Below are positions 17,574 to 49,359 of a DNA stretch of 61,753 bases, in pieces (the first letter of the stretch is position 1; every line of letters starts with the position of its first letter). A program made the translations under genes and the position numbers. Origin of the DNA: Pseudomonas phage Max; sequence record PP661416.1, one strand, 5' to 3'. The notes beneath the pieces were generated by a model, which did not search any database, had not been told where the DNA came from, and was given only the letters and a program-made list of their open reading frames with translations.

Positions 17574-17599
17574 AGGGTGGCTCCATTTCTCATAGTGAT

Positions 17600-17660
17600 G
17601 CCCGGAAGTATAGCCCAGCTGGGCGGCGAAGGCGAGCGGAGAATCATGTGCGCTTGGGAC
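17600..17660 (-). promoter_or_regulatory. promoter for the SNF2 operon: -10 TATACT with a poor -35 and an upstream CCCAAGCGCA box at about -50
   Basis: Plus-strand ggaagtatag at 17605-17614 and tgcgcttggg at 17649-17658. Confidence 0.35.
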
Positions 17661-17744
17661 GGGGGCCCAACGCTCGACTTCGTGCGCTGAAGAAGTATGA
17701 AGTGGAGTAGGCAGGGAAGCCCAGCGGGGCTGGGGGTTTATATA

Positions 17745-17763
17745 TTCTTCTTCTTCTTCTTCT
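17745..17763. repeat. (TTC)6 microsatellite
   Basis: ttcttcttcttcttcttc. Confidence 0.9.
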
Positions 17764-17797
17764 TAACTTACTTAACTTACTTACCTTAAACCCCTGG
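17760..17797. repeat. 38-bp block ttcttaacttacttaacttacttaccttaaAcccctgg (tandem CTTAACTTA units), region A copy; near-identical to 43874..43911
   Basis: 37/38 identity with the region B copy. Confidence 0.9.
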
Positions 17798-17854
17798 ACG
17801 GCCTCCGAACAGCAGGAACGGTCGCCGGTCGCCTCCCTGGGCAGGGGGTCCGGG

Positions 17855-17997
17855 CGATTTATCGGGCGAAGTAGAACTGAACTGGAGAAAGTGAAGTAAC
17901 CTAAGCGCAGGAGGGTCGGAGCTGTTACGGCGCTGGGCTTTCGATGGCGCTTGGGGTCTATACTTCTTCAGGTGTGAAGGTAAGTAGCCCAAGCGCA
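17855..17997. promoter_or_regulatory. region A regulatory module: CGATTTATCGGGCGAA, AAGTAACCTAAGCGCA, a plus-strand -10 TATACT (17959-17964) and CCCAAGCGCA (17988-17997). Collinear with region B
   Basis: Same element order and spacing as 43970..44118. Confidence 0.5.
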
Positions 17998-18000
17998 TCC

Positions 18001-32969: not shown

Positions 32970-33491
32970 TCACCCCCGCAGCAACGTGCCGCCGGAGCGG
33001 ACAAGGCCCGCGCGGACCAGCTTCTGGTCCGCCGCCGGGTATTTGGGCATCTGGAACACGGCCCCGCCCACGAAGGTGACGGACTCGCTGATGGGTCCGA
33101 CCGCTTCCGACTTCGACAGGACCGCCACGCCCGAGGCGTTCCGCTCCGGGTCCGGGTTCAGCTCCGCGGCGAGGGCGCGCAGGGCGTACTCCGCGCAGGC
33201 TTCCTTCACCTCCGGCGGGATGTCGTTGATGTAGTAGCGGTCACGGTCCCAGGCGTCCGTCCGGGGCCATTCCGTGGTCTGGTCACGGCCCAGCCGCTTC
33301 TTGCCCACGAAGTTGAACCGCTGGTCCAGGTAGTCGGTCGCGCGGATGACCGCGGCCTCAATCTGGGGGTCCGCGGAGCCCGCGAAGGAGTTGCCCCGGT
33401 CGGTGTGGTAGGTCTTGAACTCCTCCACGCTGATGTAGGCGTTCGCCCCGGCGACGGCTCCCGTGTTGTCTTGGACGATCAAGGCCATCAC
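32970..33491 (-). CDS. head-tail connector/adaptor protein (gp6-like)
   Basis: MMALIVQDNTGAVAGANAYISVEEFKTY...AAVIRATDYLD pattern typical of phage adaptors. Confidence 0.5.
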   Translation of the reverse strand: MMALIVQDNTGAVAGANAYISVEEFKTYHTDRGNSFAGSADPQIEAAVIRATDYLDQRFNFVGKKRLGRDQTTEWPRTDAWDRDRYYINDIPPEVKEACAEYALRALAAELNPDPERNASGVAVLSKSEAVGPISESVTFVGGAVFQMPKYPAADQKLVRAGLVRSGGTLLRG

Positions 33492-41491: not shown

Positions 41492-43039
41492 TTACATGTT
41501 GCCCTGCTTGACGCCACGCAGCTTCTTGCGCACGCGGTAGCGGATCGCGTCACCAATGTGGTCCTCCGCCTCCGTGTTCACGTCATCCAGGTCCTTGTCG
41601 TCGCGGGGCAGCACAGGGACCGTCTCGATGGTCTGCTGACACCAGTCGAAGATGAACAGCCCAGGGACCTCGCGCGGTCCCCCGCCCGCCGGAGGCAGCG
41701 CCCCCTTGAGCAGCTTGCGGATTTGCTCCCAGCCCTGCTTGCGCGAGCCTGGGCCCTTGTCCGCGGGCGTCCAGCGCACGCCCTTCTTCTCCATGTCCAC
41801 GGCGATGCTGTTGCCGTTCTCCACGTCGAAGATGGAGGAGTCAGCGGGGCCTGGCTTGACCCGACCTTCCAGCGCCCAGTCCTCCTCCCGGTCCTTCACC
41901 CCTTGGGCGACCTCCGAGGCGAGCATGCGGACGCCCTCGTTGCGGGTCCCGTTCCAGCCGTACCACTCCTGGATCAGGTACAGATCGCCCCGCACCTTGC
42001 CGTACACGCGGCCATTCCACTCGAACGGCTCACCATTCGACTCCGCCCACCACAGGACGGCGAAGGGCTTGGAGCTGCCCCAGTCGAAGCTGCGGTCAAT
42101 CTTCCACCGCTTCGGGATCACCGACAGCGGGACGGAGGGCACCACGTGTACGTCCCCGCGGTAGATGTCGTCAAACATCCCCCCGGCGATGATGTCCCAG
42201 GAGCCGTGGAGCCAGGCGGCGAGTTCGGAGGGGTTCCGGGCCGCGGCTCGAATCTTGCTGATGTACTCCGGGTCAGCGTGGAGCAGGATTTGGTTCTCAT
42301 AGATGGACCCGTGGATGGCGACCCGGGGCGGTTCGCGCTCGCCGTCTCGCATCGCGTCCAGGATCACCCGACCGCGCATGTGGGGGAGGCGGAAGCGGGC
42401 CTTGACCCAGTTGTGGCCGGGGCCGTAGGGGTTGGTGGTCGCCCGGTAGCAGCGGGGCATCCCCGGCTTCGTGGAGCGGCAGCAGGACATCATGACGGTG
42501 TAGCACTTGTCATCGGCCCAGTTGCAGAGTTCTTCCCAGCCAATCCACGGGTATGCGTGGCCGTGGTAGTTCCAATAATCCTCCGGCGACTTCATGTGGC
42601 GCAGCAGCAGCTCCTCGCCGTCCGGGAAGGTCCACTTGTGCTCCACCTTGTTGTACTTGGCCCCCGGGAAGATGCGCTTGAACCACTTATTGGTCTTGTT
42701 GATCACGTCCGACAGCTGGGGGTAGGTCTGACGGAACAAGATGCCCCGCCACTCCGACCCGTAGCCCTTCCCCACGTGCTGAAGGAAGTCCATCAGCAGG
42801 CAGTCGGTCTTGCCCGGGCCGCGCGTCCCCTCATACAGCACCTCGAAGATCGGATGCGCCATGAGGAAGGCGAGCTGCGACCCGTACTGCGGGCACCAGG
42901 TCGCCTCCGACTCCTTCCCCGTCTCCGGGTCCACGTAGTAGCCCCGCAGCTCGCCGGGCTCCGCCTCGCGCCACTCAATCGGGTAGTCCGGGCGGGCGGC
43001 GATGGCGACCGCCTTGCTCACTTCGGTCTGGGCGAACAT
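41492..43039 (-). CDS. terminase large subunit
   Basis: Walker A GTRGPGKTD. 515 aa. Coupled to TerS. Confidence 0.9.
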   Translation of the reverse strand: MFAQTEVSKAVAIAARPDYPIEWREAEPGELRGYYVDPETGKESEATWCPQYGSQLAFLMAHPIFEVLYEGTRGPGKTDCLLMDFLQHVGKGYGSEWRGILFRQTYPQLSDVINKTNKWFKRIFPGAKYNKVEHKWTFPDGEELLLRHMKSPEDYWNYHGHAYPWIGWEELCNWADDKCYTVMMSCCRSTKPGMPRCYRATTNPYGPGHNWVKARFRLPHMRGRVILDAMRDGEREPPRVAIHGSIYENQILLHADPEYISKIRAAARNPSELAAWLHGSWDIIAGGMFDDIYRGDVHVVPSVPLSVIPKRWKIDRSFDWGSSKPFAVLWWAESNGEPFEWNGRVYGKVRGDLYLIQEWYGWNGTRNEGVRMLASEVAQGVKDREEDWALEGRVKPGPADSSIFDVENGNSIAVDMEKKGVRWTPADKGPGSRKQGWEQIRKLLKGALPPAGGGPREVPGLFIFDWCQQTIETVPVLPRDDKDLDDVNTEAEDHIGDAIRYRVRKKLRGVKQGNM

Positions 43040-43566
43040 CAGCTGCCCTCCCCGGTCGGACGGCCCACGGTCCCGCGGGCGAGGTCCCCAAACTGGTTCT
43101 GCCAGTCGTTGATCGTGGCCGGAGCCCCCGGGACGATCAGCACCCCGCCGGTGCCCGAGGCGGTCATGCTGGCCGCGTCCTTCCCGTCCTTGAACTCCGC
43201 ACGATGGGCGCGGAGCATCATGGCCATCAGCGAATCGCTGTACACCCGCTCATAGGTGATGATCTCATCCTTGAACTTCCCGCCGATGATCGGGCGCTCC
43301 ACGCCGTCCCGCGCCCGCTTCAGGGCCGCGCTGAACAGGTGCTCGTCAATCCACGCTTGGCGGGCGTCCTCCAGAGCCTGGGCAAACTCCGGGTCATTCT
43401 TGACATGATAGTCGATGGTGGAGCCGGAGACGCCCACGGCCTCCGCGCACAGGTACTTCCGCCCACCCAGGTCGGGGTGCGTGCGGAACAACTCCAGGTA
43501 CTGCTCCTTGCGGTCCGAGGTGAATGGCACCATCGGCTTCGGCTTCAGTTTCTCAATCGGGTGCAT
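43039..43566 (-). CDS. terminase small subunit
   Basis: Start MHPIEKLKP with an RBS. HTH-like segment CAEAVGVSGSTIDYH. Immediately upstream of TerL. Confidence 0.65.
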   Translation of the reverse strand: MHPIEKLKPKPMVPFTSDRKEQYLELFRTHPDLGGRKYLCAEAVGVSGSTIDYHVKNDPEFAQALEDARQAWIDEHLFSAALKRARDGVERPIIGGKFKDEIITYERVYSDSLMAMMLRAHRAEFKDGKDAASMTASGTGGVLIVPGAPATINDWQNQFGDLARGTVGRPTGEGS

Positions 43567-43656
43567 CACGCTCCCCCTTCGGTGTGTACTGTTCGTCAAT
43601 CGCGCATCACGCGGCGATCCGTCCCCGGCCTCACGCCCAAGGACATCCTCGCGGCG

Positions 43657-43685
43657 AGTATAGCGTGAGCTTGTACATTAGCCAA
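43657..43685 (-). promoter_or_regulatory. candidate late promoter (-35 TTGGCT, 17 bp, -10 TATACT), about 100 nt upstream of TerS
   Basis: Plus-strand gagtatagcg...attagccaag. Confidence 0.4.
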
Positions 43686-43852
43686 GGGTGGGTCGCGCTC
43701 GCCCGCGGGGGAGACACGAGGAGCGTGTGGCAGCGGATTGCCCAAGCAGGCACGCAGCGTCCTCCGCTTAGGTTCGAGGGGTCGCGCTTCACTTCCACGT
43801 CCGAAAAAGTAAAAAGTCAAGCGGGCAAAAAGGCCATATAAAACAGCCCTTT

Positions 43853-43874
43853 ATAGATAGATAGATAGATAGAT
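43853..43874. repeat. (GATA)5 microsatellite
   Basis: atagatagatagatagatagat. Confidence 0.9.
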
Positions 43875-43911
43875 TCTTAACTTACTTAACTTACTTACCT
43901 TAACCCCCTGG
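43874..43911. repeat. 38-bp block ttcttaacttacttaacttacttaccttaaCcccctgg, region B copy of 17760..17797
   Basis: 37/38 identity. Confidence 0.9.
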
Positions 43912-43969
43912 GAGCCCTTCGGACACCAGAAAGCCTCAACAAGGATTCTCTTGGGCCGGTCCGCCGGGT

Positions 43970-44118
43970 CGATTTGTCGGGCGAATTTATTTCAGGTAAG
44001 AATCCCAAGTAACCTAAGCGCAAGGTGCGGGAACCCCAGACGGGCTTGACTTCCCGCCACGCCTTGCTTCATACTTTTTCGGAGCCGAACCCAAGCGCAC
44101 TCCCGTAACCCAAGCGCA
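43970..44118. promoter_or_regulatory. region B regulatory module: CGATTTGTCGGGCGAA, AAGTAACCTAAGCGCA, a plus-strand promoter TTGACT-18-CATACT (44046..44075) and two CCCAAGCGCA boxes (44090, 44109)
   Basis: Collinear with region A. The plus-strand promoter points into the 3' end of the early operon. Confidence 0.5.
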
Positions 44119-44233
44119 CCCGGTCGAAGTGGAGAAGGAGGAGGGAGCCCCGCCGGTTTTCCCGCAGCCTTCGGCCTCCTGTAGTGAAGTCGGCACCATT
44201 GCCGCCCGGCGGGGCATTGATCGTGAGGGCTGG

Positions 44234-44452
44234 TCAGGCCCGCTTCCCTCGTTGAAGGAACCAGTCCAAGGCGGCGCAGATCGCGGGGTTGTCCCACCAC
44301 TCGTCAATCATGCGGCGTGCCGCCCGGTCGCGGAAGAAGGTTGGCCCGCAGTAGTTGTGCCACTCCATGAACACGCAGGAGCCGTCCGCGAGGCGGAGCC
44401 GGAAGAAGGGCGACAGGCAGACGATGCCGCCCGGGATGCGCACGTAGGTCAT
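44234..44452 (-). CDS. hypothetical protein
   Basis: Start MTYVRIPGG, ATGA-coupled. Confidence 0.4.
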   Translation of the reverse strand: MTYVRIPGGIVCLSPFFRLRLADGSCVFMEWHNYCGPTFFRDRAARRMIDEWWDNPAICAALDWFLQRGKRA

Positions 44453-44703
44453 CGCCGGTCCTCCATGTAGTCGAACACGGCCTGGTCGATGCGTTCGCGC
44501 TCCGCCTCCGTCATCTTGCGCTCCAGCCAGGGCGCGGGGCGTCCGCGGCGGTCGCGGACTTCCCATTCACCGCATCCGCCTTCCGCCGGGTAGCAGTATT
44601 CAGGCGGGCCGCTGATTTGGGCGGGCACGTAGGGCTCCCAGTAGGTGACCACGATGAGGCAGGGGATGCCCGCCACGCGGTCCTCGAACTCAGCCAGTGA
44701 CAT
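44449..44703 (-). CDS. hypothetical protein
   Basis: 84 aa. Confidence 0.4.
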   Translation of the reverse strand: MSLAEFEDRVAGIPCLIVVTYWEPYVPAQISGPPEYCYPAEGGCGEWEVRDRRGRPAPWLERKMTEAERERIDQAVFDYMEDRR

Positions 44704-49330: not shown

Positions 49331-49359
49331 AGTATAGTGGGGGCTCCCGAAGAAGTAAA
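49331..49359 (-). promoter_or_regulatory. sigma70-like promoter (-35 TTTACT, 17 bp, -10 TATACT)
   Basis: gtgaagaaagtatagtg...cgaagaagtaaag. Confidence 0.5.

Follow-up and report, generated by a model that had tools for sequence, protein, structure and literature searches.

The closest described counterpart of the locus considered here, the interval at positions 43567 to 44233 in the 61,753-nt genome of Pseudomonas phage Max (PP661416.1; the window, in what follows, is this whole stretch), is found in Pseudomonas phage YuA. The interval carries short repeats, called boxes here, an AT-rich core and, on the plus strand, the promoter-like sequence TTGACT-18-CATACT, which an initial annotation took for a strong promoter reading antisense to the last early genes. 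In YuA, the sigma70 promoter P014, with its transcription start site (TSS) at 33417 on the plus strand, was mapped by ONT-cappable-seq (Putzeys et al. 2024, PMC10914365; supplement bioRxiv 10.1101/2023.10.13.562163). The GenBank record of YuA (AM749441) gives a promoter-trap fragment (33014-33160, -35 at 33048, -10 at 33071) of 'medium activity (1000 MU)', which corresponds to ~43905-44050 in the window, with TTAGGT as its -35 and TGAAAT as its -10 on the minus strand, and an equivalent trap fragment (489-568) on the coding strand in the core of a paralogous copy of the region; the promoter-trap results (Ceyssens et al. 2008) were taken from this annotation and from Putzeys et al. The antisense transcription units of YuA number four, with P002 (201 and 552 nt), P004 and P011 as their sole sources, and the 50 nt upstream of P002 (612, minus strand, listed as a 'phage promoter') are the (TTC)n repeat and the 24-mer of the paralogue on the helicase side (PMC10914365). 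The YuA data thus document a TSS on what is the minus strand of the window and an antisense RNA in the paralogue (PMC10914365), along with promoter-trap activity (AM749441). For phage LUZ19, the same authors described an antisense promoter at the edge of the early region, P001, and suggested that it stops transcription into the neighbouring genes (Putzeys et al., PMC10914365).

The window is a Yuavirus phage genome. A 2-kb query around the interval matched 61 phage records, with PaTs-2, PaSt-2 and Churro at 98.3-98.5% identity and M6 at 90%, and the relatives are classified in Mesyanzhinovviridae, Rabinowitzvirinae, Yuavirus (the Pseudomonas phage M6/YuA group). The minus strand carries every annotated gene of the relatives and every long open reading frame (ORF) with a family match in the window. 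The interval separates the last small early gene (44234-44452) from the small terminase gene (43039-43566), and because it is flanked by the 72-residue phrog_7990 product on one side and by the small terminase (phrog_4044) on the other, the initial annotation was right to label it the early/late boundary. It is a non-coding control region in front of the terminase, or late (packaging), operon, and three parts of it are conserved and functional, namely the terminase promoter on the minus strand, the core that holds a near-invariant 24-mer, and the box repeats. The evidence leans, by a modest degree, towards a reading in which this late-operon control region has no dedicated antisense promoter at the plus-strand site and the boxes are putative protein sites. 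On the coding strand, a GC-rich hairpin comes first, after the last early gene, followed by two 13-bp boxes in 19-bp tandem, a ~285-bp core between imperfect inverted repeats and the terminase promoter TTGGCT-17-TATACT, and the core brings together a host-type promoter with its -35 over a third box, the most AT-rich DNA of the genome and the near-invariant 24-mer.

The sequence TTGACT-18-CATACT is indeed present at 44046-44075 on the plus strand, as had been proposed, but neither 'strong' nor 'best sigma70 match' describes it well. It scores 9/12, with a suboptimal 18-nt spacer and a -10 that lacks the first T and has the A at position 2 and the T at position 6, and in the scan of the whole window the same score was reached at three other plus-strand sites (1204, 37646 and 38488), in comparison to three sites at 10/12 on the minus strand. 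The number of sigma70-like sites of such quality was 4 on the plus strand, in comparison to 3.07 +/- 1.9 in 60 dinucleotide shuffles, and 14 on the minus strand; the match is therefore no better than chance genome-wide. Considered as a sigma70 promoter, the site has the expected hexamers and spacing, with neither an excess over chance on its strand nor conservation.

To describe conservation, we aligned 18 distinct copies of the interval from GenBank and IMG/VR. The results showed that the plus-strand site is the least conserved stretch of the interval: this segment is 54-61% identical to the YuA/M6-type relatives, in comparison to 93-100% for the arms, the 24-mer and the boxes in the same sequences. 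Two alleles of equal length occur at the site, the window's form and GTATGGCTTAGACCACAGCTTGACTTCTTTACTTCTTCGAGCATG, which is without a -10 and is carried by YuA, M6 and five metagenomic relatives; YuA, M6 and about one third of the genus have such a different allele, and YuA itself reads GCTTGACTTCTTTACTTCTTCGAGCATG there, also without a -10. A stretch of 58 nt (44030-44087) is identical in ~32 closely related GenBank isolates, which amount to one common haplotype, and every more diverged carrier of the window's allele has a hexamer broken, the A of the -10 being lost in PSA20, Lydia and others (CTTACT) and the -35 in EKU1 and ERS-1 (CCAACT or ACAACT), with the box 13-mers intact in the same variants. 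In the Bordetella relatives nothing can be aligned to TTGACT-18-CATACT. Part of the site, CATACTTTTTCGGAG, is homologous to TATACTTCTTCAGG of the paralogue's arm, and CATACT is homologous to the TATACT of that arm (TCTATACTTCTTCAGG), at which no TSS was mapped in YuA either. The initial annotation had named a lack of conservation in related phages as refuting its antisense promoter, and since the site is broken or absent in the diverged relatives the proposal fails on this point; the chance-level count and the absence of the site from YuA/M6-type and Bordetella phages also speak against a dedicated promoter. Most likely, TTGACT-18-CATACT is how the right arm of the inverted repeat, a fast-evolving stretch, is spelled in one haplotype, and it is at most a weak promoter in some lineages only; we infer that it is inactive.

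Several side observations concern the alleles. Two relatives (L031 and L037) have a small terminase 98% identical to that of the window and yet carry the YuA/M6-type allele, and LKO4, with a terminase 74% identical, yet carries the window's allele, which therefore places recombination breakpoints inside the interval. The record named 'Escherichia phage ERS-1' (L042, PP337211), of 175 kb and flagged UNVERIFIED_ORG, holds a Yuavirus-like copy of the interval and is probably a mixed assembly.

The expected product of the plus-strand site was an RNA rather than a protein, and this was examined through YuA transcripts, folding and coding potential. No antisense start is listed by ONT-cappable-seq in the YuA copy of the interval, nor any transcription termination site (TTS) between 31609 and 33511 (Putzeys et al., PMC10914365); YuA carries the other allele, so a plus-strand RNA may still occur in phage Max. 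The prediction of a folded RNA at 44080-44230 was not borne out: the plus strand folds worse than shuffles (z = +2.5; opposite strand z = +0.68), the candidate core transcripts gave z = +1.16 and +0.09, RNAalifold on the relatives gave -6.4 kcal/mol for the interval and, at -0.37 kcal/mol, no structure common to the paralogues, there was no covariation, and Rfam returned no match at the gathering score nor at E<=1. A search for tRNA and tmRNA found none. Neither a family match nor stability and covariation above background was thus seen, and a structured RNA, whether in 44080-44230 or spanning the core, was rejected on these positive or near-zero z-scores and weak alifold energies. The plus-strand ORF at 44129-44470 starts with GTG, has no Shine-Dalgarno sequence upstream and no PHROG match, and overlaps, on the opposite strand, genes that match PHROG families over their full length (phrog_7990, E 1.6e-41; phrog_6858, E 1e-48); a 43-nt insertion near its start shifts the frame in M6/LKO4-type relatives. 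As a protein-coding gene it was rejected for want of a ribosome-binding site and a family match and for the broken frame, which agrees with the initial annotation.

The two boxes noted earlier between the promoter and 44120 are there and are conserved. The decamer CCCAAGCGCA stands at 44090-44099 and 44109-44118, in each case inside a 13-mer AACCCAAGCGCAC, and the 13-mers are unchanged in eight compared variant sequences, in which only the short spacer between them varies; relatives outside these eight differ slightly, with 81-93% identity over the box segment. Among relatives, the second box is TATCCCAAGCGCAC in some and one (L007) has three copies, the 19-bp period being the same with 2 copies as with 3, and in Bordetella phage MW2 the equivalent place is taken by two GAACCTAAGTAGC repeats. 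Exact copies of the 10-mer number 4 in the window in comparison to 0.20 expected, a number reached in 0 of 100 shuffles, and all four are in two junctions, two of them in the interval and the others at 17649 and 17988. The box at 43762-43774 pairs in inverted orientation with that at 44011-44023, 236 nt apart and 100% complementary over 10 nt (I10), and the paralogue has the same inverted arrangement with 241 nt between (I13). The repeats are thus identical, evenly spaced, over-represented and confined to control regions, as is expected of an iteron or operator array, and relatives carry annotated DNA-binding proteins elsewhere in the genome. Because identical direct repeats recur at a fixed period, in control regions only, with one of them overlapping a -35, we read the boxes as protein-binding sites; most likely they are putative sites for a phage-encoded DNA-binding protein acting on the promoters of both junctions, and we infer that such a protein binds them.

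The genome has two such junction elements, which are paralogous. The second, at 17574-18000, is upstream of the helicase gene and is built from the same parts, their order and orientation unchanged; one of the two elements marks the junction from late to early genes, the other that from early to late; in Bordetella phage MW2 (Vojvodinavirus) both elements are found with the same layout. The parts common to both junctions are the 24-mer, CGATTT(A/G)TCGGGCGAA, the AAGTAACCTAAGCGCA box, the TACTT(C/T)TTC arms and CCCAAGCGCA, and the helicase-side copy further shows a CGATTTATCGGGCGAA block, boxes at 17649(-), 17900(+), 17946(-) and 17988(+), the arm sequence TATACTTCTTCAGG where the interval has CATACTTTTTCGGAG, and a (TTC)n microsatellite in the place of (GATA)6. 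The imperfect inverted arms TACTT(C/T)TTC(A/G)G enclose cores of 285 bp (17687-17971) and 284 bp (43800-44083), respectively, which contain the two most AT-rich 50-mers of this 64% GC genome, the microsatellite with the 24-mer of the interval being the highest at 76% AT. The left arm at 43800-43823 is 100% identical in nearly all Yuavirus relatives. The microsatellite in front of the 24-mer (43850-43876; 17740-17762) is (GATA)6, (TTC)6-7 or (ATT)5-6 among copies and phages, and as its length and the leading TTTATA are kept, spacing or AT-richness seems to count more than sequence. Single substitutions in Churro and L037 apart, the 24-mer does not vary in either paralogue, whether of Yuavirus or of the Bordetella Vojvodinavirus phages, and the overlapping 25-mer AACTTACTTAACTTACTTACCTTAA (43879-43903 and 17765-17789) has 2 copies in comparison to 0 expected. 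In Churro (L001 3875-3900), which is 98% identical overall, the substitution is in the 24-mer of this interval (AACCTACTT).

On the coding strand, the terminase promoter is 93-100% identical across Yuavirus, and its -10 is kept in the Bordetella phages too. For the homologue of the core promoter TTAGGT-17-TGAAAT, no TSS is listed by ONT-cappable-seq of YuA (PMC10914365). In the YuA paralogue, the antisense TSS P002 is directly downstream of the 24-mer, and P003 also lies in the paralogue. The probable -10 of P002, TAAACT, is present only in the helicase-side copy of YuA, the other Yuaviruses and both copies of the window having TAAACC or TTAACC; an antisense promoter after the 24-mer was therefore rejected as a general feature, and RNA of the P002 type may not be general. 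A sigma54 promoter was looked for in the two junctions and not found. The Yuavirus phage-type promoter, GCTTTACTTCTTCGG-N9-CACTATACTT(T)CTTCA, has nine sites in YuA and seven in the window, all of the latter on the minus strand. As side observations, several of these sites have the -35 block, which contains CUUCGG, in the loop of a GC stem (for example GGGGGCT...AGCCCCC at 49359), and the -60 to +40 sequence of the YuA TTS T013 contains the phage-type promoter P012.

Several observations weigh against the favoured reading of inactive plus-strand site and protein-bound boxes. No known protein binds the boxes, and the inverted box pair of the paralogue forms a strong hairpin (17946-17997; z -3.1 and -4.2) situated between the YuA 3' ends T003 (411, minus strand) and T004 (471, plus strand); as RNAs of both strands end at this hairpin in YuA, some boxes at least may act in RNA rather than in DNA. 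The ~32 isolates with identical 58 nt include some that are only 91-94% identical over the whole interval, so that the identity could reflect constraint instead of shared descent, and a plus-strand TTGAC(A/T) recurs close to the position of the site in all lineages, Bordetella phages included. In the YuA data, the phage was covered at low read depth and RNAs shorter than ~80 nt escaped detection (PMC10914365), which, together with the different allele, makes the missing YuA TSS weak evidence for phage Max. Moreover, no other plus-strand sequence in the 61.7 kb fits the skeleton of the promoter class that belongs to the phage itself, TTTACT(<=1)-N16-18-TATACT(<=1), for which our own estimate of the chance expectation is ~0.45 per strand.

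These points bear most on the view of the initial annotation that the site is, in carriers of the allele, an active outward promoter, recognised by the host's sigma70 or belonging to the phage-type class. Its product would be either a ~135-nt RNA that stops at the GC hairpin (44147-44215) or a longer transcript complementary to the last early genes, with the effect of damping early expression or blocking read-through at the early/late boundary. The 9/12 match with its two -10 bases, the phage-type skeleton, the identity in ~32 isolates, the antisense RNA of the paralogous junction in YuA (P002, 201 and 552 nt) and the comparable boundary role proposed for LUZ19 (Putzeys et al., PMC10914365) all speak for it, but the plus-strand matches are at chance level, diverged carriers have broken hexamers, YuA/M6-type and Bordetella phages do not have the site, the better homologous -10 of the YuA paralogue has no mapped TSS and the predicted RNA folds worse than shuffles, and we regard this view as unlikely.

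Table 1. Features in and around the interval between the last early gene and the small terminase gene (positions in the window)
Feature	Position	Strand	Remarks
Two identical 13-mers AACCCAAGCGCAC, starts 44088 and 44107	44088..44119	+	19-bp tandem period; iteron- or operator-like
Box variant AACCTAAGCGCAA, third, weaker copy	44011..44023	+	direct-repeat family D1; conserved in Yuavirus
Left inverted box copy (CTCCGCTTAGGTT on plus strand)	43762..43774	-	inverted repeat I10
Left arm of core-flanking inverted repeat, CGCTTGACTTTTTACTTTTTCGGA on minus strand	43800..43823	-	inverted repeat I3 with 44060-44083
TTTATA + (GATA)6 microsatellite	43850..43876		in relatives (TTC)n or (ATT)n, about equally long
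Near-invariant 24-mer TTAACTTACTTAACTTACTTACCT	43877..43900	+	second copy 17763-17786
Conserved block GGGTCGATTTGTCGGGCGAATTT	43966..43988		paralogue form GGGCGATTTATCGGGCGAAG; 91-100% identical within Yuavirus
Terminase-operon promoter TTGGCT-17-TATACT	43685..43657	-	expected start ~43649; from scan; homologue of YuA P014
Sigma70-type promoter TTAGGT-17-TGAAAT	44017..43989	-	-35 overlaps box 44011-44023
TTGACT-18-CATACT, sigma70-like, 9/12	44046..44075	+	partly within right arm of inverted repeat (44060-44083)
Imperfect allele-specific hairpin enclosing TTGACT, then UUCAUACUUUUUC	44020..44067	+	minimum free energy -24.8 kcal/mol, z -1.55
GC-rich hairpin, stem GCCCCGCCGG / CCGGCGGGGC	44147..44215	-	inverted repeat I11, 100%; minimum free energy -39.5 kcal/mol, z -2.19
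Small terminase subunit gene, first of late (packaging/structural) block	43039..43566	-	phrog_4044, E 1.3e-61; ATG 43566-43564
Last small gene of early/middle block, 72 aa	44234..44452	-	phrog_7990 full length, E 1.6e-41; annotated in Churro and M6
Seven phage-type promoters, first bases	56540, 54509, 49359, 48614, 46857, 15535, 7308	-	motif scan

Searches of metagenomes and genomes for the 24-mer returned mostly the same phage group and unrelated (CTTA)n microsatellites. Matches filed under an Anaerolinea and a Microbacteriaceae metagenome-assembled genome have Yuavirus-like and Bordetella-phage-like flanks and probably represent phage contigs that were binned with these assemblies. A distant 53-kb contig of lower GC content, IMGVR_UViG_3300043400_000014 (L010, L014, L035), has three copies of the identical 24-mer, and the two with a readable downstream gene precede, by ~200 nt, an SNF2 helicase gene in one case and a small terminase gene in the other; both are in sense orientation, followed by TATATT and flanked by inverted boxes peculiar to that phage (CGTCTTAACTTAGC / GCTAAGTTAAGACG). 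This placement indicates that the genomic positions are conserved, though the orientation of the 24-mer to the genes is opposite to that in Yuavirus. An invertible promoter segment, suggested by the ~24-bp inverted repeats and the reversed 24-mer of the distant contig, was rejected because ~35 classified Yuavirus/Vojvodinavirus copies share one orientation relative to the flanking gene; we know of no invertase in these phages. There is, in our estimate, a small chance that the junction elements are orientation-flexible switch modules common to a wide set of phages, with the 24-mer bound by a conserved putative factor. The 24-mer would then lie between face-to-face promoters, the host-type sense promoter 44017-43989 and an antisense start that the homology with YuA P002 leads one to expect at ~43915, and the transcripts of the two would overlap by ~70 nt; the flanking sites of the box-binding protein would join in timing the early-to-late change or firing replication, and the right arm in the window's allele would supply an extra outward promoter silencing the last early genes.

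It is improbable that the cores of both junctions are replication origins, in which the microsatellite and the 24-mer would unwind, the boxes would be putative initiator iterons, and core transcripts, starting in or beside the core and possibly including one from the plus-strand site, would activate or prime replication. The extreme AT content of the cores, the identical direct repeats of 19-bp period and variable copy number, the promoters within the core and the position of one core directly upstream of the helicase gene are what such a model would predict, and other phages have duplicated origins (oriL and oriR of SPP1) and 19-bp iterons (lambda ori). Searches of the two junctions, however, found no DnaA boxes or IHF sites, there is no clear GC-skew switch, and transcription control fits better than origins with the readable distant-contig copies, since these stand ahead of the first gene of an operon.

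The hairpins inside the interval relate to a further improbable reading, namely that 44020-44083 acts in RNA as the intrinsic-terminator-like 3' end, hairpin plus UUCAUACUUUUUC, of a plus-strand RNA starting at ~43915 after the 24-mer. The -24.8 kcal/mol hairpin is followed by a U-rich run, the YuA P002-T003 RNA is a 201-nt antisense RNA within the paralogous intergenic region that ends 5-6 nt past a hairpin, and the left arm mirrors the arrangement on the other strand. Such an RNA is less easily reconciled with the YuA copy of the interval, where no antisense TSS is reported after the 24-mer, with the TAAACC and TTAACC of the window in the place of the -10 of P002, or with the hairpin itself, which is only marginally better than shuffles (13 of 200 were as good), is disrupted by variants that carry no compensatory changes, and was not reported by a simple terminator scan. 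A weak hairpin (-10.7 kcal/mol, z -0.67) precedes the left arm, at whose position the depositors of LKO4 annotated terminators. The GC-rich hairpin lies 19 nt past the stop codon of the last early gene and has a loop of 49 nt in the window and M6/LKO4 and of 8 nt in YuA-type relatives (a 41-nt indel), its stem being kept in relatives without covariation; in the minus-strand RNA it is followed by the pyrimidine run CUCCCUCCUCCUUCUCC, not a U-run, and no TTS is reported there in YuA.

That the interval is a pac site, where the small terminase would bind inverted and direct boxes around a bendable AT-rich core and start headful packaging, is highly improbable: the small terminase gene (annotated also in Churro, M6 and LKO4) is directly downstream, the phage group is reported to be circularly permuted with headful packaging, two GenBank records end inside the interval and SPP1 pac has a comparable box and AT-rich layout, but a near-identical element lies 26 kb away upstream of the helicase gene, the distant contig has three copies, and the record ends are probably arbitrary linearisation points. 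These records, PAE1 (KT734862) and NEU2024 (PQ144889), end at window ~43701 and ~43732, close to the palindrome CTCGCCCGCGGGGGAG at 43698-43713; apart from arbitrary linearisation, a packaging-related end may account for them.

In general, the analysis suggested that the interval, read as a late-operon control region with putative protein sites, is an ordinary promoter-region finding and that the duplicated junction element is the more interesting one. If the plus-strand site were active, there would be an extra antisense RNA at the early/late boundary of a phage group that includes therapeutic candidates, though such a site is unlikely as a conserved feature. The junction element is shared with Bordetella phages and stands upstream of helicase and terminase genes in a distant contig, and it offers a defined starting point in the search for the factor behind the transcription programme of Yuavirus. 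Such a factor was inferred from the phage-type promoters, whose motif was inactive in uninfected cells (Putzeys et al., PMC10914365). The element may also locate a replication origin.

Compared with the systems described before, the window and YuA have direct homologues in P014 and the trap fragments, and differ in that YuA has the other allele, with no -10 and with no antisense TSS listed in its copy. The plus-strand site shares the skeleton of the Yuavirus phage-type motif with one mismatch per hexamer, and its 3' part CATACTTTTTCGG resembles the TATACTTTCTTCA block. It differs in the spacer (18 in comparison to 17), in having no TCTTCGG extension after the -35, in its position on the non-coding strand and in not being conserved, so that the GCTTTACTTCTTCGG block, the 17-nt spacer, CTATACTT(T)CTTCA and the coding-strand location which define the phage-type class are not found together in it. 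Similar to LUZ19 P001 and its Phikmvvirus homologues, the site is a promoter-like sequence on the non-coding strand at a module boundary, but P001 is a promoter for the phage's own RNA polymerase, shows nearly perfect conservation among 15 species and has had its TSS mapped, and the plus-strand site is like it in none of these respects. For the boxes, the nearest likeness is with the lambda ori iterons and with the phi29 p4 sites, which lie between early and late promoters. The boxes differ from these arrays in that the inverted pair of the paralogue forms an RNA hairpin at mapped 3' ends. They are similar in consisting of short identical direct repeats with a fixed period of ~19 bp, in adjoining AT-rich DNA and several promoters, in their confinement to control regions and in the overlap of one copy with a -35.

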